Assembly: GCA_023659775.1 (NCBI GenBank)
Contig: JAGXOS010000005.1
Location: forward strand, 1-32,000
Direction of reading: 5' to 3'
DNA from: Methanomicrobia archaeon LH_S14
GTDB lineage: Archaea > Halobacteriota > Syntropharchaeia > Alkanophagales > Methanospirareceae
DNA length: 32,000 nt
Below, piece after piece: positions 11,821 through 28,979 of this stretch. Numbering within the stretch: the stretch's first letter is position 1; each line of letters opens with the position of its first letter. The position numbers and the translations under genes are program-made. The notes beneath the pieces are model-generated. The model had not been told where the DNA came from. It was given only the letters and a program-made list of their open reading frames with translations, and made no database searches.

Positions 11821-11852
11821 CAAACTTTCTTAAAAAGAAAGTTTGATCAAAG
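11821..11852. repeat. palindromic unit CAAACTTTCT-TAAAA-AGAAAGTTTG followed by ATCAAAG; related to two units at 17731-17783
   Basis: A perfect 10-bp stem joins 11821-11830 and 11836-11845. The 15-mer GAAAGTTTGATCAAA (11837-11851) is identical to 17767-17781 and contains the palindrome TTTGATCAAA. Confidence 0.6.
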
Positions 11853-14967: not shown

Positions 14968-15744
14968 ATGCGCATACTAATTAATCTTCGGGCCGCGAAA
15001 AATCAGGGTTATGAAAGTCTTTACCATCATAAGTTACAGGGATTCGTTTACGGGCTGTTGAGGGATTCGGGATTTGATGGGTTGCATGATAAGGGGGGCT
15101 ACAAATTCTTTTGTTTTTCAAATATCTTTCCTATAAAGGATATTATGGGTGCAGGCGAAGCGTTCAATTTGATTATCGCATCGCCGAATGCTGCGCTTAT
15201 ATCTTCAGTAGAGGGTGCGTTAGAGAAGATTTTGGCTGATGCTGATGGAAATGGAAGGGATGCAAACATAGGAGAAATGTCATTTGAGGTAGTGGGTTTT
15301 AAGAAGCTGGAGACGAAGCTAAAGAGGAAGGATTTGAGGGTGCTCACCGCCACGTCGGTGATAATCAGGATACCGGAGAGGAATTATGAGCGATATGGGA
15401 TACCAGAGGAGGAAAGAAAAGCGAGGTATGTTTACTGGCGTCCGAAATATTCATTTGAGGCTTTTTTGAAGCAATTAAGTGAGAATTTGATAAAGAAGTT
15501 CAATGATTTTTACGGCACGAAGCTGAGAGAATACGAACTGTTCGAGCAGTTTGTGTTCAGGCGTGCAACAGCGACAAAGGTGGTTATTGACGGCAGGGAA
15601 TACGTGATGGTGGGTAGTATGTGGGAGTTCGTATGGAGTTATATGGATGAAATGCAGCGAAGAGTAATAGAGTTTGGGTTGGATGCGGGATTTGGTGAGA
15701 GGAATTCGTTGGGGTTCGGGTTTGTGAATAAAATTTCTTTCTGA
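14968..15744 (+). CDS. cas6: Cas6 crRNA endoribonuclease
   Basis: Its N-terminus is typical of Cas6 (MRILINLRA...YHHKLQGFVYGLL). The C-terminal glycine-rich loop is GFGERNSLGFGFV. Only 44 bp separate it from the divergent MNT gene, so the transcript is probably leaderless. Confidence 0.85.
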   Translation: MRILINLRAAKNQGYESLYHHKLQGFVYGLLRDSGFDGLHDKGGYKFFCFSNIFPIKDIMGAGEAFNLIIASPNAALISSVEGALEKILADADGNGRDANIGEMSFEVVGFKKLETKLKRKDLRVLTATSVIIRIPERNYERYGIPEEERKARYVYWRPKYSFEAFLKQLSENLIKKFNDFYGTKLREYELFEQFVFRRATATKVVIDGREYVMVGSMWEFVWSYMDEMQRRVIEFGLDAGFGERNSLGFGFVNKISF

Positions 15745-15759
15745 AGAAAGAAATTTTAT
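15728..15759 (+). other. perfect 14-bp hairpin centred on the cas6 stop codon
   Basis: ATAAAATTTCTTTC (15728-15741), loop TGAA (containing the TGA stop), GAAAGAAATTTTAT (15746-15759). Confidence 0.6.
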
Positions 15760-15834
15760 GGCATAAAATAACGAGAAAAGTTTATAGGGTTCCATTTATA
15801 ATAATATGTGAATGGATAATGGAGGAGAGGAAGG

Positions 15835-16218
15835 ATGAGAGAAGAAGTATCCAATTGGTGGAAACAAGCATTAAAGGATTTGGAAAGCGCTAAGAAGAAT
15901 CTCGAAATTGAAGAGTATTATATTGCCGCCTTCTTATCACAGCAAGCTGCTGAAAAAGCCCTAAAAGCATTATACATTCATAAAATCAAAGAGTCGCCAG
16001 GACCAACTCATTCTTTGCTATTCTTAGGGAAGCGAGTTGGGATTCTAGAGGAATTTCACACAGCGCTCAGGAAGTTGAGTCCAGATTTTGTCATTACAAG
16101 ATATCCTGATGCTGTTCATGGTCTTCCATACGAACTTTATGACGAGGAGATTTCAAGGGAAAGGTTAGAGTTAGCCGAGAAGGTGATAAAATGGGTGAAG
16201 AAAGAACTGGAGAGATAG
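15835..16218 (+). CDS. HEPN domain protein
   Basis: WWKQALKDLESAKKNLE, LSQQAAEKALKALY and ITRYPDAVHGLPYELYDEE. It is a paralogue of the 4995-5393 protein. Confidence 0.85.
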   Translation: MREEVSNWWKQALKDLESAKKNLEIEEYYIAAFLSQQAAEKALKALYIHKIKESPGPTHSLLFLGKRVGILEEFHTALRKLSPDFVITRYPDAVHGLPYELYDEEISRERLELAEKVIKWVKKELER

Positions 16219-16544
16219 AAGGATTTTTGGAGAAAGTAAGAATAAGATTCAGTCCCGAAGCAATGATATTATTTGGAAGCAGGTCAAGAGGGGAATATTT
16301 AAAACAAAGCGATTACGACTTGATAATAGTCAGCAAAAAGTTTGAAGGCATGCATTTCCTTGAGCGGATATATCAACTCTTAGAGCTTTGGGATTGTGAT
16401 GCCGATGTAGATTTGTTGCCTTATACTCCGGAAGAGTTCAAGAAGAAAAAGGAGGAGATAGGAATTGTAAAGGAGGCAGTAAAGGAAGGGGTTGAGGTAT
16501 CATTAAAGCAAAAGGATTTCATGGATAAACGTGTCAAAATATAG
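16191..16544 (+). CDS. minimal nucleotidyltransferase (MNT)
   Basis: ILFGSRSRGEYLKQSDYDLIIV. It overlaps the HEPN gene by 28 nt. Confidence 0.85.
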   Translation: MGEERTGEIEGFLEKVRIRFSPEAMILFGSRSRGEYLKQSDYDLIIVSKKFEGMHFLERIYQLLELWDCDADVDLLPYTPEEFKKKKEEIGIVKEAVKEGVEVSLKQKDFMDKRVKI

Positions 16545-16569
16545 AAAATTATAGTAGGGAGTTGTCAAG

Positions 16570-17652
16570 ATGATAAGACGCGCGACTTTATCGCTTAACG
16601 AAGCGACAGGGGAGAAGAAGGTAGCGATAGATTTATTGATACAACAGTATCTTATCTTCCTGCAAAAGGTTATTAACACGCTCTGGAATCATAAACTCTT
16701 CTTTGGTACGTTTGTTCCCAAGAAATGGTATAAAGAGATAAAAAGCTCTTTAACAGAACGATACAAGCAATGTGCAGCAAAGCAAGCCTTAGCTATTGTT
16801 AAATCGCAGCGAAAGCGAGAGAAGAAAACAAAGCCGATTATTCATAATGCCTCTATCGAATTAGATTCACGATTCGTTACGATAGAACAAGGGAAAAACA
16901 GTTTCGACCTGTGGATAAAACTCGCTGTCTTAGGTGGGGAACCAATATATATCCCTGCAAAGTGGCATTATCACTTCAACAAGTTCTTTAATAACTCCGA
17001 TTGGACCCCGAAGAAATCATGCAGGTTGCGAAGAACGGATAAAGGATTATTCTTAGATATATTCTTTGAGAAAGAAGCGGAACAGATAAAAGAAGCGGGA
17101 GGAGCTGTTGGGCTCGACTTGGGATTTCGTAAATTAGCCGTTCTGAGCGATGGGCAAATAGTAGGTAAAGAGCTAAATAAGGAAGAGATAACCCGATTAT
17201 ATAATCGAAAAAACAGTCATTTGGTTATTTCAGAACTTATAAACCGGGAATTGAAGAAGATAGATTTTAATAATATCAAAACGCTTGTGGTCGAAGATTT
17301 AAAGAACGTAAAGAAGGGAAAGGGAAGAAAAGCAAAGCCCGGGAAAAGATTCAGTCGTTACGCTAATCGGTTGCTTGCACATTGGGCTTACCATCGTGCT
17401 CTGACCAAACTGGAGATGCTCTGTGAAGAGAACCGTGTTCAAATCGCGGGTGTGAATCCAGGAGGGACGAGTAAAGCCTGCAACAAATGTGGAAGCAAAG
17501 GGATAAGACGGGATGAAAGATTCGTATGTCCCACATGTGGAAATAAGGACGATGCCGACCATAATGCCGCATGTAACATACGAGACCGCTTTATCTCTCA
17601 GGGAGTATATGGTCCCCTGCCTGAAAACCACTTAGATGTTCCCTCTGGTTAG
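16570..17652 (+). CDS. tnpB: TnpB (IS200/IS605-family OrfB) RNA-guided nuclease-like protein; no tnpA nearby
   Basis: All three RuvC motifs are present: GLDLGFRKLAV (D), TLVVEDLKNV (E) and DADHNAACNI (D). The zinc finger is CNKCG...CPTCG. It starts 25 nt after the MNT stop. Confidence 0.85.
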   Translation: MIRRATLSLNEATGEKKVAIDLLIQQYLIFLQKVINTLWNHKLFFGTFVPKKWYKEIKSSLTERYKQCAAKQALAIVKSQRKREKKTKPIIHNASIELDSRFVTIEQGKNSFDLWIKLAVLGGEPIYIPAKWHYHFNKFFNNSDWTPKKSCRLRRTDKGLFLDIFFEKEAEQIKEAGGAVGLDLGFRKLAVLSDGQIVGKELNKEEITRLYNRKNSHLVISELINRELKKIDFNNIKTLVVEDLKNVKKGKGRKAKPGKRFSRYANRLLAHWAYHRALTKLEMLCEENRVQIAGVNPGGTSKACNKCGSKGIRRDERFVCPTCGNKDDADHNAACNIRDRFISQGVYGPLPENHLDVPSG

Positions 17653-17790
17653 GATGGAATATTTTTCTATATAAGTGGTAACTATAACAGCCGCCCTTAT
17701 CTTTGACTTGACTTCTGCCATGCTTATTCCACAAACTTTAAGAAAAGTTTGACCAACAACCTTTAGGAAAGTTTGATCAAAATCTTCTCA
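17560..17790 (+). ncRNA. candidate TnpB omega/reRNA and right-end region (position-based guess)
   Basis: In characterised TnpB systems the guide RNA scaffold spans the tnpB 3' end and the downstream transposon right end. Hairpins occur here at 17732-17751 and 17757-17775. The boundaries are unknown. Confidence 0.2.
17731..17783. repeat. two tandem palindromic units related to 11821-11852
   Basis: Unit a is CAAACTTT-AAGA-AAAGTTTG (17732-17751) followed by ACCAA. Unit b is CAACCTTT-AGG-AAAGTTTG (17757-17775) followed by ATCAAAA. The palindrome TTTGATCAAA sits at 17772-17781, 37 nt upstream of the cas8 TATA box. Confidence 0.6.
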
Positions 17791-17817
17791 GTCACTTAAA
17801 AAAGTTAGGGGGAAAGT

Positions 17818-17825
17818 TTTATATA
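17818..17825 (+). promoter_or_regulatory. TATA box (with purine-rich BRE GGGGGAAAG) for the cas8-cas7-cas5 operon
   Basis: GGAAAGTTTTATATAGG lies about 30 nt upstream of ATG 17855, implying a near-leaderless transcript. Confidence 0.55.
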
Positions 17826-17854
17826 GGGACATGAAAAATAGGTGTGTAAGATGA

Positions 17855-19420
17855 ATGAAGAGGCTAAGGGGGAAGGGGGTTAAAATAGAAATCCCGATTT
17901 ATAATGATGTTTGGATGGATAATGGGGTTGAAACATTTTATCACATTTTGAAAGAGGCGCAGAACAATAGTTTTAATGTAAATATTAACGCTGATTCTCT
18001 GCTACTAAATGTGACTGATTTCGATAAATTCCAAGAATCTATTGGTGTTGCAGTGAAGAACAGACGCTCAAATCTCATCGTGATTGCTGAGGACAAGAAG
18101 ACTGGTGAAACGAAACAGATAAAGAAGGATTATATCCTTATCCAAGAAGGGACGAAGGTCAAAGGAGAAGTAGCGTTTAAAGAGGGATTATACAATGAAA
18201 AAACTGCCGTTGACACCGTTAAAAAAGTATTTGACTTGATTGCCGAAGAAGGGACGCGCAATTGCATTATTTGTGGGAAACAGTTTTCCAAGCCTGTGAA
18301 GAAACTCCAGCAAGCTGCCTACCCATCTGTCACAAAGATTAAAAGCCTTAGTGGGGTAAGAAGTTACAAGGATGGTGAAGTCTACTCTTTTAAAGAATAC
18401 TTTGAGGACTTTTGTCCTACTTGCTATCTAATAGGGCTCTCTGAGTGGTCTGACGATGGAATAATTTATCGCACAATCCCTGGTGAAAGGTCCACCTTGT
18501 TTTTACCCAAGCTTAACAGCTTAGAGGAGTTGGCAAAATTCAAAGAATCATATCGCCCTCTTCTAAATAAGAGTTCTCGGTATCGCAACATACGGGTTAA
18601 GGAAGGCAGCGAAGAAACAGAAAATCCATCTGGATCTTTTAGCACTTTGATTTGCTTCTATGAGAAATTTTTCTTCGGTGTTGACAGAAACGAGGTAATT
18701 AAAAAATCTTGGGTAATGATGGAAGTGCCATTCGGTGCTGTTAAGAATATCAAGCTCAGCGTTATAGACCTTGCAGAATCTACTTTGCGAGTTATCAAAG
18801 AACTTTCCAATGAGGAAATAAGCATCTATAAAGAGATAATCGAGGAGATTTTCTTCTTTTACGACAATCCGAAAGGTGCTCCTGTGGACTGGAATCTAAC
18901 CGGGGAAATTAGAGAAAAACTCTCCGAAGCTATCCTGAAAGACGATTTCCGTTCCTTTGCAAGAAACATTCTTCCGAGGAAGGGCGGCCGAGTAGGCTAC
19001 TCAAAGGATACAAGACTTAATATAGAGGAGTTAATATATATTTGGAGGTTGAAAAATATGGGGCTGAATGAAGAAAAGTTAAAGACTATTAGGTCTGCGG
19101 GTAGAACAATTGCAGCGGCTTCTAAAGACCATCGAAACCTTTTATACAATTTGGATAAAGCGAAAGATAAATCAGCTTTGTTGAATGCTTTGCGACAGGT
19201 TAGCCGGAGAATAGCAGGATTGAAAGCAGAAGAGAAAGAGAAATTTAAGGGATTTATTTACCCTCCCGCTCTAGAGGACATTGTTTCATTGTTAGAAGAG
19301 CATGACACTGATAGCAAGTTCATTGAGGACATAAAAAATATTTTGGTAGTCTTTTCCTGTGTTGAATTTTCAAGATTAGACTACTTCAGAGAAAAAAAGG
19401 AAGGTGAGGCGAATGAATGA
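17855..19420 (+). CDS. cas8b: Cas8 large subunit of the Cst1 / CXXC-CXXC type (type I-B)
   Basis: It has CIICGK...CPTC zinc-finger-like pairs. Position (cas6 ... cas8-cas7-cas5-cas3) and size (521 aa) fit. Confidence 0.7.
19058..19420 (+). CDS. cas11: candidate internally translated Cas11 small subunit (in frame within the cas8 3' end)
   Basis: In-frame ATG 19058 is preceded by GGAGGT (19044-19049) at 8-nt spacing. The 120-aa product reads as helix-rich by composition ([32 protein letters not shown]...). Confidence 0.35.
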
Positions 19421-26294: not shown

Positions 26295-28979
26295 GTTAAA
26301 CACGGACTAAGATAGGATTGAAACACAAATCATGGATATGTATCATAGAGGCATAATAGATTGTTAAACACGGACTAAGATAGGATTGAAACATCATAGA
26401 AACTATCATAATCAATTATACCGCGGTGTTAAACACGGACTAAGGTAGGATTGAAACAAAAGTAACACCCGACAGCGACAAAGCGATAAAGCGAGTTAAA
26501 CACGGACTAAGGTAGGATTGAAACGCAACTCCTTCGGTATTATATTTCCTTCCATTTTTCTTTGTTAAACACGGACTAAGGTAGGATTGAAACTGTAGAC
26601 GGTATGAACGAAGCGGAAGACCCTATAGAGTTAAACACGGACTAAGGTAGGATTGAAACGAAATATCGTAAACATAGGGAAGGGAAAGATAGAGAGTTAA
26701 ACACGGACTAAGGTAGGATTGAAACATACGATAGTAATAGTATAATCCCTCAGGTAAATCTTGTTAAACACGGACTAAGGTAGGATTGAAACTTTAAGCA
26801 AACTATCAGTATCAAACTGCAAATTGAGGTTAAACACGGACTAAGGTAGGATTGAAACAGATTTATAAGGTATGTAACACATTCCTCCTTCGTTATCGTT
26901 AAACACGGACTAAGGTAGGATTGAAACAATTGACATTAGCTTGTCAGTGTAGTTTTTTACCGTGTTAAACACGGACTAAGGTAGGATTGAAACTACTGGT
27001 ATGAATACTGGTGGGACAGGGACGCAGGGTTAAACACGGACTAAGGTAGGATTGAAACGTTACAGCATCATTTACTATTTTAGCTGTTGTTACAGTTAAA
27101 CACGGACTAAGGTAGGATTGAAACCAAAATACAGGGACACACCGATATCATGTAACTCAAGTTAAACACGGACTAAGGTAGGATTGAAACCTCGCTATAA
27201 TTACCCTCTATCAGTTTGCTGTATGGGGTTAAACACGGACTAAGGTAGGATTGAAACAAAATAAAAAGCTTTTTCCAGTAAGAAGCCCCTAAGTTAAACA
27301 CGGACTAAGATAGGATTGAAACGAGCGAACCCAACTTTCTCTAACGTTTCTGTTACCTCGTTAAACACGGACTAAGATAGGATTGAAACGTTCTTTTCTC
27401 TCTATTTGCTCGTATCGCTAGTGCGTTAAACACGGACTAAGATAGGATTGAAACAATTGGAGCAATAGCAATAATGCTAACATTTAGGGAGGGTTAAACA
27501 CGGACTAAGATAGGATTGAAACTTAAATATATCACTCTTTTCTATTGGTATGTCCTCAGTTAAACACGGACTAAGATAGGATTGAAACATAGTATGCTTG
27601 AGGTGTTTTTCCTTCATGAGGTATAGTTAAACACGGACTAAGATAGGATTGAAACTCTTGTATTAGTATATCGTACATGTCCTGAGCATGGTTAAACACG
27701 GACTAAGATAGGATTGAAACCAAAATACAGGGACACACCGATATCATGTAACTCAAGTTAAACACGGACTAAGATAGGATTGAAACATAGGATATGCTAA
27801 CACACCATTTTTTGTTACATAGTTAAACACGGACTAAGATAGGATTGAAACAAATACATATATAGATACATGGTTTGATGAACGTAGTTAAACACGGACT
27901 AAGATAGGATTGAAACGAAGCACCACCGGGTGATTATACTATAACACCACCAGTTAAACACGGACTAAGATAGGATTGAAACATAATCTGCGTTGGATTC
28001 CCTTCTGCATCCCGTTCCAGGTTAAACACGGACTAAGATAGGATTGAAACTTTGTGTTTGAATCGGGACATACGTACAGTTTTCATGGTTAAACACGGAC
28101 TAAGATAGGATTGAAACAATTTTAATCTCGTAGGTTTCAAGGGGAAATAAATTGTTAAACACGGACTAAGATAGGATTGAAACTATTTAGAACGTATCGG
28201 CTCCGCTACATTCTCGTAGAGTTAAACACGGACTAAGATAGGATTGAAACTTTGCTTCGAGATAGCGTCCATACTCACCCAATCCGGTTAAACACGGACT
28301 AAGATAGGATTGAAACATATAATATCAAAATTCGAATTGAAAGCGGATTTCGGTTAAACACGGACTAAGGTAGGATTGAAACGGAATACATGTTAGAGTT
28401 TCAAAGGCTGCTTGAGGAGTTAAACACGGACTAAGGTAGGATTGAAACATGACACGTGAAGGGATTGAGATAAAATGTGCTTATGTTAAACACGGACTAA
28501 GGTAGGATTGAAACTCTCATATCACCTCCATTTCTGTTCGGTAGGTATTAGTTAAACACGGACTAAGGTAGGATTGAAACTATTCGTAGCTCTACTACCG
28601 TCCATCTCAAACCCTCGTTAAACACGGACTAAGGTAGGATTGAAACGGCGATTAACGGTTTAGGGCACTTTAGAGCGACGAAGTTAAACACGGACTAAGG
28701 TAGGATTGAAACTATTCATTGTATCTCCACACTCTGTCACTGCTGAATCGTTAAACACGGACTAAGGTAGGATTGAAACAAAAGCTTTTATGCGGTTTTT
28801 GTATAACATATATTTAGTTAAACACGGACTAAGGTAGGATTGAAACTAAAGCTCCCGCTGGAGAAGAGAAGAAAAGACTAATAGTTAAACACGGACTAAG
28901 GTAGGATTGAAACAGCATATATCAATCCGTTGCAGACAGAGATGTAACGGTTAAACACGGACTAAGGTAGGATTGAAAT
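26295..28979 (+). CRISPR. CRISPR array, 41 repeats x 30 bp, 40 spacers of 35-39 bp
   Basis: The repeat is GTTAAACACGGACTAAG[A/G]TAGGATTGAAAC. Its 3' end ATTGAAAC is the typical 8-nt crRNA 5' handle, so the transcript is on the + strand with the leader on the cas2 side. The last repeat ends GAAAT (degenerate). Repeats 1-2 and 16-31 carry A at position 18; repeats 3-15 and 32-41 carry G. Confidence 0.97.

Follow-up and report, generated by a model that had tools for sequence, protein, structure and literature searches.

An orphan tnpB element of probable IS607 type in the stop codon of an MNT antitoxin gene within an archaeal type I-B cas locus

Introduction

When genes for a predicted HEPN toxin, an MNT antitoxin and a TnpB nuclease stand close together on one strand inside a CRISPR-cas locus, do they form a single unit, or did tnpB arrive there by itself? 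This question is raised by a locus of Methanomicrobia archaeon LH_S14, an archaeal metagenome-assembled genome that is 66% complete and consists of 243 contigs (assembly GCA_023659775.1; G000 in our numbering). The nearest reference relatives of this genome bear the labels Methanophagales / Methanomicrobia. The window, i.e. the whole stretch of DNA that was analysed, covers positions 1 to 32,000 of contig JAGXOS010000005.1 (C199). A preliminary description, made from the sequence without database searches, had placed the HEPN gene, the MNT gene overlapping it by 28 nucleotides (nt) and tnpB 25 nt further on between cas6 and cas8, and all of these genes were found at those positions.

Positions 15835 to 16218, plus strand: HEPN toxin gene (PF05168, E 1.4e-25), with the R-x5-H motif RYPDAVH
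Positions 16191 to 16544, plus strand: MNT antitoxin gene (PF01909, E 2.3e-12), 117 amino acids (aa), overlapping the HEPN gene by 28 nt
Positions 16570 to 17652, plus strand: tnpB, 360 aa, separated from the MNT stop codon by 25 nt (NF040570, 103.9 bits; cut-off 100)
Positions 16501 to 17685, plus strand: IS607-type tnpB-only element, about 1,185 bp, with a boundary that is ambiguous by the shared TAT (left end about 16497/16501)

With a probability of roughly 85%, we consider 16501-17685 to be a non-autonomous insertion sequence of the IS607 family, which keeps only tnpB and its omega-RNA and was inserted in the stop codon of the MNT gene. It is an ordinary orphan IS607-type tnpB insertion into a toxin-antitoxin gene within a type I-B cas locus, and it forms no unit with the HEPN-MNT pair.

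Extent of the element

The search for other copies of tnpB that the preliminary description had proposed defined the left end, the right end and the insertion target. The genome of a sister genus (G002) holds three copies, on contigs C252, C194 and C219. The C252 copy is 97% identical to the window over 16497-17202 and 99% identical over 17382-17685, with nothing matching beyond these positions. The C194 copy is 84% identical over 17089-17685, and its similarity also stops at 17685; the copy on C219 is degraded. Between the two matching parts of the C252 copy lies an internal deletion of 179 bp (at 1996/1997 of locus L030, corresponding to window 17203-17381), which breaks the reading frame and removes the RuvC-II glutamate. 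A contig of the public run X1 carries the same deletion, and the window copy is the only intact close copy that was seen.

A DNA search of the window's own genome detected a lone left end on contig C169 (locus L003, 902-983), where 82 nt correspond to window 16495-16576 and include the ATG of tnpB. This left end is cut off, and about 100 nt further on follows a different transposase-like gene (253 aa, with a helix-turn-helix N-terminus). It is the remnant of a second insertion in this genome. Furthermore, contigs of the public runs X1-X3 cover only 16491/16497-17685, and their flanks are unlike those of the window. In the junction alignments the similarity starts at GTATCATTAAAG and stops at AAGTGGTAACTAT, with unrelated flanks in every copy.

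More distant copies were found at 61-71% protein identity in Altiarchaeota (L051), Borrarchaeum (L052) and Methanophagales (L053, identical to L136), and all of them end in AACTAT. The right end ...GTAACTAT is kept in five relatives down to 61% protein identity, and similarity ceases directly after it. The protein collection contains TnpBs at 83-85% identity (P0096-P0099), and the TnpB clade is present in 4 of the 400 genomes searched of the phylum.

We place the limits of the element at about 16497/16501 and 17685 because the shared sequence of all other copies ends there. The element excludes the HEPN gene, the native coding sequence of the MNT gene, the hairpin at the cas6 stop codon and the palindromes at 17731-17783. 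These limits bear on the first of two readings offered in the preliminary description, according to which HEPN, MNT and tnpB are one mobile IS1341-like unit with a toxin-antitoxin passenger, bounded by the hairpins at 15728 and 17731. The three genes are indeed compact, lie on one strand and have a hairpin on either side, and the distant relative in Borrarchaeum also has MNT and HEPN genes within about 1 kb upstream. However, every other copy ends at 16497 or 17685, and neither the HEPN-MNT genes nor the hairpins occur in any of them, so that the pair does not behave as cargo. This is the outcome that the preliminary description had named as refuting such a reading. In Borrarchaeum, moreover, the left end of the element comes after an intervening gene fragment and not in the toxin-antitoxin pair. 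A HEPN-MNT pair also occurs by itself at 85% identity in another locus, and the hairpins belong to genome-wide families, as detailed below. We regard this first reading as barely credible.

Insertion in the MNT gene

The closest MNT proteins in a large protein collection (P0001-P0003, 85-90% identity) are intact proteins of 103 aa, which end in ...EG(M/I/L)EV followed by the stop codon. In the window, codons 1-103 of the MNT gene (16191-16499) are native, while 14 extra codons and the present stop codon (16500-16544) belong mostly to the element's left end. The junctions are GAGGTAT|CATT on the left and ACTAT|AACAGCC on the right.

Positions 16498 to 16500, plus strand: left TAT, preceded by G; TAT is present at both junctions, and GTAT is the predicted target motif and target-adjacent motif (TAM)

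Removal of the element in silico yields the empty joint GAGGTATAACAGCC, which restores E-V-stop. The MNT gene of locus L056 ends in GAG GTA TAA, and its sequence GAGGTATAA is the same as that of the window with the element removed. Judged from these sequences, the element is inserted at a GTAT that extends over the final codon of the MNT gene into its stop codon, with GAG GTA T^AA as the original site. The 103 native residues of the MNT protein are therefore retained and followed by a tail of 14 residues, and the stop codon is now one supplied by the element. At each of the four left junctions that were seen (window, C252 of the sister genus, C169 of this genome, and Borrarchaeum), the left end is preceded by GTAT, and the right ends all finish in ACTAT. 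The insertion is resolved to the base; it can serve as a clean natural case in which TAM (GTAT), guide and the border of the omega-RNA are all predicted.

The HEPN-MNT pair has a history of its own. The translations show the HEPN motif R-x4-6-H (RYPDAVH) beside an MNT with GS...DxD (GSRSRG...DYD), which points to a toxin-antitoxin pair. HEPN-MNT ranks among the most abundant predicted toxin-antitoxin systems of archaea (PMC3632139). A metagenome scan with MNT returned L056 as the single close relative. Its pair has 85% nucleotide identity to that of the window, with the similarity confined to the coding region (15832-16503); it has no tnpB and adjoins ribosomal protein genes, outside any cas context. 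More distant HEPN-MNT relatives (G004, G029) are likewise not in cas loci. Because these relatives occur outside cas loci, the pair counts as a cassette in its own right. It lies between cas6 and cas8b of the type I-B CRISPR-cas locus and, in our interpretation, is older than the tnpB insertion.

The TnpB protein and its possible recruitment

The preliminary description had stated that TnpB keeps its three RuvC motifs and its zinc finger, which was borne out. The motifs LDLG, VVEDL and DADHN start at residues 182, 240 and 328, respectively, and CNKC and CPTC at residues 304 and 320. Across 68 homologues there is no change at D183, E242, D330, C307, C320 or C323 and hardly any at C304; the D-E-D triad is also invariant in an alignment of 12 homologues. 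The zinc finger CxxC...CxxC (C304/C307 and C320/C323) lies in the TNB domain (PF07282, E 1.7e-15). The protein is of full length, with relatives of 351-360 aa. Its AlphaFold model (pLDDT 86.3) matched Cas12f, ISFba1 TnpB and ISDra2 TnpB over the whole length in Foldseek (E 1e-16 to 2e-7, TM up to 0.69). On this evidence, TnpB looks intact, with the full TnpB/Cas12f fold and a canonical catalytic site. This compact archaeal clade (360 aa), which is tied to serine recombinases, could help in the mining of miniature RNA-guided nucleases.

An intact nuclease next to an antitoxin gene could also have been recruited by the host, either as a nuclease toxin under control of MNT or as an RNA-guided partner of the type I-B system that is co-transcribed with HEPN-MNT. 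Consistent with this, the antitoxin gene and tnpB share a strand and are 25 nt apart, read-through is plausible, and three other copies adjoin toxin-antitoxin-like genes (PaREP1; UPF0175 and PIN-like; MNT and HEPN). Moreover, TnpB exaptations next to antitoxins have been proposed before, in the form of RHH/MazE-TnpB pairs with rearranged catalytic sites (Altae-Tran et al. 2023, PMC10691335). As in those pairs, an archaeal tnpB lies here directly downstream of an antitoxin-type gene. In contrast to those pairs, the catalytic site in the window is the canonical D-E-D, the neighbouring MNT already has a HEPN partner, and the juxtaposition was made by a datable insertion in a stop codon, which is missing from the closest MNT relatives. 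The sharp transposon ends, the copies at unrelated sites and the lack of any match to the element among the 40 spacers of the adjacent CRISPR array also argue against recruitment. The second reading of the preliminary description, in which TnpB and HEPN-MNT are one co-expressed unit, comes down to adjacency: a HEPN-MNT relative exists without tnpB, and tnpB copies exist without HEPN-MNT. Recruitment by the host is thus very unlikely.

The toxin-antitoxin-like neighbours of other copies are an observation in their own right. In C252 of the sister genus (L030, 1161-2699) the neighbour is an RHH-PaREP1 (HEPN-family) gene between ilvN and ilvC, in C194 (L031, 4949-6378) a UPF0175 and PIN-like pair, and in Borrarchaeum (L052, 1412-2546) an MNT and HEPN pair. 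Such neighbours may reflect chance in genomes rich in toxin-antitoxin genes, or a shared preference for islands. We would give long odds against a preference of this TnpB clade for toxin-antitoxin genes, or a working MNT-tnpB module under antitoxin-linked control; if true, it would be a new instance of TnpB being recruited within a defence island.

Family of the element

IS607 elements have no inverted repeats or palindromic ends, make no target duplication and carry the same core dinucleotide at both junctions (bioRxiv 10.1101/2023.11.20.567912). Upon excision they leave a scarless donor joint that is then cut by TnpB, and the target motif of the transposase doubles as the TAM (bioRxiv 10.1101/2023.11.20.567912). 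In the window, neither true end forms a significant DNA hairpin (fold z +0.95 on the left and +0.16 on the right), a TAT core is present at both junctions as it is in Borrarchaeum, and several copies have identical ends and different flanks (C252, C194 and C219 of the sister genus, C169 of this genome, and runs X1-X3). In these respects the element follows the described IS607 pattern. Furthermore, in L051 and L053 a C-terminal remnant of an IS607 serine-recombinase TnpA lies directly upstream of tnpB (NF033518; E 1.2e-22 over profile positions 116-187, and E 2.8e-17 over 130-187). No tnpA was found within 16501-17685, in agreement with the preliminary description, so the serine TnpA of a full IS607 element is missing. 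On sequence criteria the element is a tnpA-less IS607-type derivative rather than a complete IS607.

The ends do carry a short inverted repeat (I2), with 14 nt at 16539-16552 and 17659-17672 that are 93% complementary.

Positions 16539 to 16552, plus strand: subterminal motif ATATAGAAAATTAT of the left end, which forms the inverted repeat with 17659-17672

The Borrarchaeum left end holds a similar motif, AAAATATAGAAATCATAG. For this copy, a left-end match about 90 nt upstream of tnpB was dropped, and the junction at about 310 nt, which is set by the flanking split gene, was used.

The preliminary description had suggested hairpin ends of the IS200/IS605 type, and tnpB-only elements are classically filed as IS1341-like. 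An IS200/IS605 element of the IS1341 group would be moved by a Y1 TnpA, and contig C55 of the same genome does carry a Y1 transposase gene (PF01797, E 4.1e-25, with one internal TGA). The element resembles the IS1341 group in being a single-gene tnpB element of about 1.2 kb. Yet it differs in that subterminal hairpins are absent from both true ends, and in that its relatives at 61-71% identity are tied to serine and not Y1 transposases by the remnants described above. Moreover, the identical trinucleotide at both junctions is what would be expected of a serine-recombinase core. We therefore consider an IS200/IS605 element moved by a Y1 TnpA very unlikely.

Among characterised elements, the Clostridium botulinum IStron (Zedaveinyte et al., bioRxiv 10.1101/2023.11.20.567912) is alike in several respects. 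Both have a canonical RuvC site and lack terminal hairpins and inverted terminal repeats. In both, the 3' end of tnpB overlaps with the omega-RNA, which reaches as far as the right end and has the right flank as guide (predicted for the window). Both have the same core nucleotides at the two junctions, a scarless donor joint and a target motif that doubles as the TAM (the last two inferred for the window). In contrast to the IStron, the window element has neither tnpA nor a group I intron, its left end is only about 70 nt long, and it resides in an archaeal host of the ANME-1 / Methanophagales type. The motifs also differ: TGGG, with GG shared, in the IStron versus GTAT, with TAT shared, as core and target motif in the window.

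The orphan IS607-type element of Borrarchaeum is also alike. Its TnpB belongs to the same clade (63% identity), its right end is ...GTAACTAT, and it has TAT at both junctions and the similar left-end motif AAAATATAGAAA. It also lacks tnpA and also lies inside a small gene. Unlike the window element, it has a left leader of about 310 nt instead of about 70 nt, splits a DUF6125-like gene and resides in a host of a different phylum.

Predicted omega-RNA, guide and mode of movement

The preliminary description had suggested a structure check of the 3' region and a guide just upstream of the cas8 promoter. A covarying, omega-RNA-like structure was obtained from five sequences, and the predicted guide falls where it was expected.

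Positions 17533 to 17685, plus strand: predicted omega-RNA scaffold, comprising the 3' end of tnpB and 33 nt of the right end
Positions 17686 to 17705, plus strand: predicted guide, i.e. the right flank; it opens with AA, the two bases that completed the stop codon of MNT before the insertion

The consensus structure of the last ~155 nt contains 43 pairs, of which 14 show compensatory changes. Paired cells amount to 91%, versus 42-48% when the partners are slid by 1-3 columns. A stem ACCACUU/AAGUGGU links the stop codon with the right end; both of its sides change in three of the four other relatives. Conservation ends sharply after AACTAT. A search of 15000-19000 against Rfam gave no match. 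The 3' region is predicted from its sequence to be an omega-RNA-like scaffold. The position of the guide is predicted from its adjacency to the conserved right end and by analogy with the known TnpB mechanism (bioRxiv 10.1101/2023.11.20.567912), and it lies about 110 nt upstream of the TATA box of cas8.

With these parts, movement of the element could proceed as follows. Transcription would start from an A/T-rich promoter in the left end or result from read-through from HEPN-MNT. The tnpB transcript would then be processed into omega-RNA, as in characterised IS607 and IS605 TnpBs. A serine recombinase acting in trans would excise the element and leave the resealed joint of GTAT and AACAGCC.... 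By analogy, TnpB with its omega-RNA might cut this joint (predicted target GTAT-AACAGCCGCCCTTATC, with GTAT as the TAM), after which homologous repair from a sister copy would reinstate the element. A possible helper in trans is encoded on contig C68 of the same genome (L146, 82-1805), which carries a complete IS607 element encoding a 200-aa serine TnpA (206 bits) and a different TnpB of at least 392 aa. No recognisable end sequence common to this IS607 and the window element was found.

Several points weigh against the interpretation as an IS607-type insertion. The C68 TnpA comes from a different IS607 element and may not recognise the ends of the window element. There are only one intact copy and one left-end remnant in a genome that is 66% complete, so that present-day mobility is conjectural. 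An orthologous empty site in a close strain was not found, and the empty site is inferred from a paralogous or xenologous cassette of 85% identity in another context. The near-identity to the copies of the sister genus may stem from the way in which contigs of one sample were binned, and not from a transfer between genera. Finally, both omega-RNA and guide are predicted: the covariation comes from five sequences that are partly coding, and the alignment that shows it also yielded the structure.

Hairpins and dispersed palindromes

The two hairpins that were thought to bracket the three-gene block both exist where the preliminary description had placed them. Their interpretation as ends of the element did not hold.

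Positions 15728 to 15759, no strand assigned: hairpin at the cas6 stop codon, with a perfect 14-bp stem and TGA in the loop; not an element end
Positions 17731 to 17783, no strand assigned: two palindromic units with consensus CAAACTTTAGGAAAGTTTGATCAAAATGCTTCGC (Tandem Repeats Finder; 24-nt period, 2 copies)

The DNA fold of the cas6-stop hairpin is -11.9 kcal/mol (z -6.07), and none of 200 shuffled sequences folded as well. This genome contains 80 perfect hairpins with stems of at least 10 bp, versus 7-10 in shuffled genomes. Many of the 80 have the form CAAACTTTCTTT-NNN-AAAGAAAGTTTG, an A/T-rich class to which the long cas6-stop hairpin also belongs. At least 12 near-identical copies of CAAACTTTCTTT-NNN-AAAGAAAGTTTG were counted, e.g. 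on C177 (three), C171, C207 and C210.

The palindromic units lie 46 nt beyond the right end of the element. The unit at 17757-17782 belongs to a dispersed 34-nt repeat with at least 13 sites, which are spread over 10 contigs and often made up of tandem units. This repeat consists of the palindrome CAAACTTTAGGAAAGTTTG followed by ATCAAAATGCTTCGC, frequently as two to three tandem units with a 33-nt period.

C55:15696-15790, C99:13829-15564, C214:4463-4520, C242:2864-2925, C190:1381 and C240:324: sites of the 34-nt repeat
C12:1009, C77:10921, C187:1667, and window 17731-17783 and 11821-11852: further sites of the 34-nt repeat

The hairpins are not element ends, because both fall within palindrome families that are spread over the genome, and they are absent from every copy of the tnpB element. 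Their bracketing of the three-gene block is a coincidence, and they have no part in the element. Both families are genome features, probably either terminator-like or of the repetitive extragenic palindrome (REP) type. Conspicuous hairpins in this genome are dispersed repeats and should not be read as transposon ends. The three-unit repeat array on C55 lies 4.3 kb from the Y1 (IS200-like) transposase gene with the internal TGA. The 34-nt repeat could represent a REP system with a REP-associated tyrosine transposase (REP/RAYT-like) in an archaeon, or terminators.

The surrounding cas locus

The element and the HEPN-MNT cassette are surrounded by the following features.

Positions 14968 to 15744, plus strand: cas6 (PF01881, E 1.3e-16; TIGR01877, E 8.5e-23), the upstream neighbour, outside the element
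Positions 17818 to 17825, plus strand: TATA-like box TTTATATA upstream of cas8, read from the sequence
Positions 17855 to 19420, plus strand: cas8-like gene downstream of the tnpB element, in a type I-B locus (cas8b)
Positions 26295 to 28979: CRISPR array with 41 repeats and 40 spacers

The cas8-like gene is followed by cas7 (type I-B Cst2/DevR model), cas5 and cas3. The TATA box named in the preliminary description is present. We propose that the locus be annotated as cas6, a HEPN-MNT cassette, an orphan IS607-type tnpB element and cas8b, and not as a new three-gene system.

Searches with cas8 and cas7 (G101, G231, G015) found no cas locus with cas6 directly beside cas8, and the comparison of orthologous cas loci that the preliminary description had proposed thus gave no empty site of the block. 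The G101 contig begins just upstream of cas8, and in G231 and G015 other genes lie upstream of cas8. The region upstream of cas8 in G231 matches 17811-17955 at 76% identity. Contigs of a hydrothermal-vent metagenome (X4) match the window through cas6 to 15758 and resume at 17694, upstream of cas8, with unlike sequence between. These breaks hint that the segment 15759-17693 is variable and that relatives may lack HEPN-MNT and tnpB altogether; the two breaks are not joined.

Within the CRISPR array, one 36-nt spacer occurs twice (27125-27160 and 27721-27756), and together with the neighbouring repeats it gives a tandem period of 131 nt (Tandem Repeats Finder). The duplicated spacer is an internal duplication of the array.

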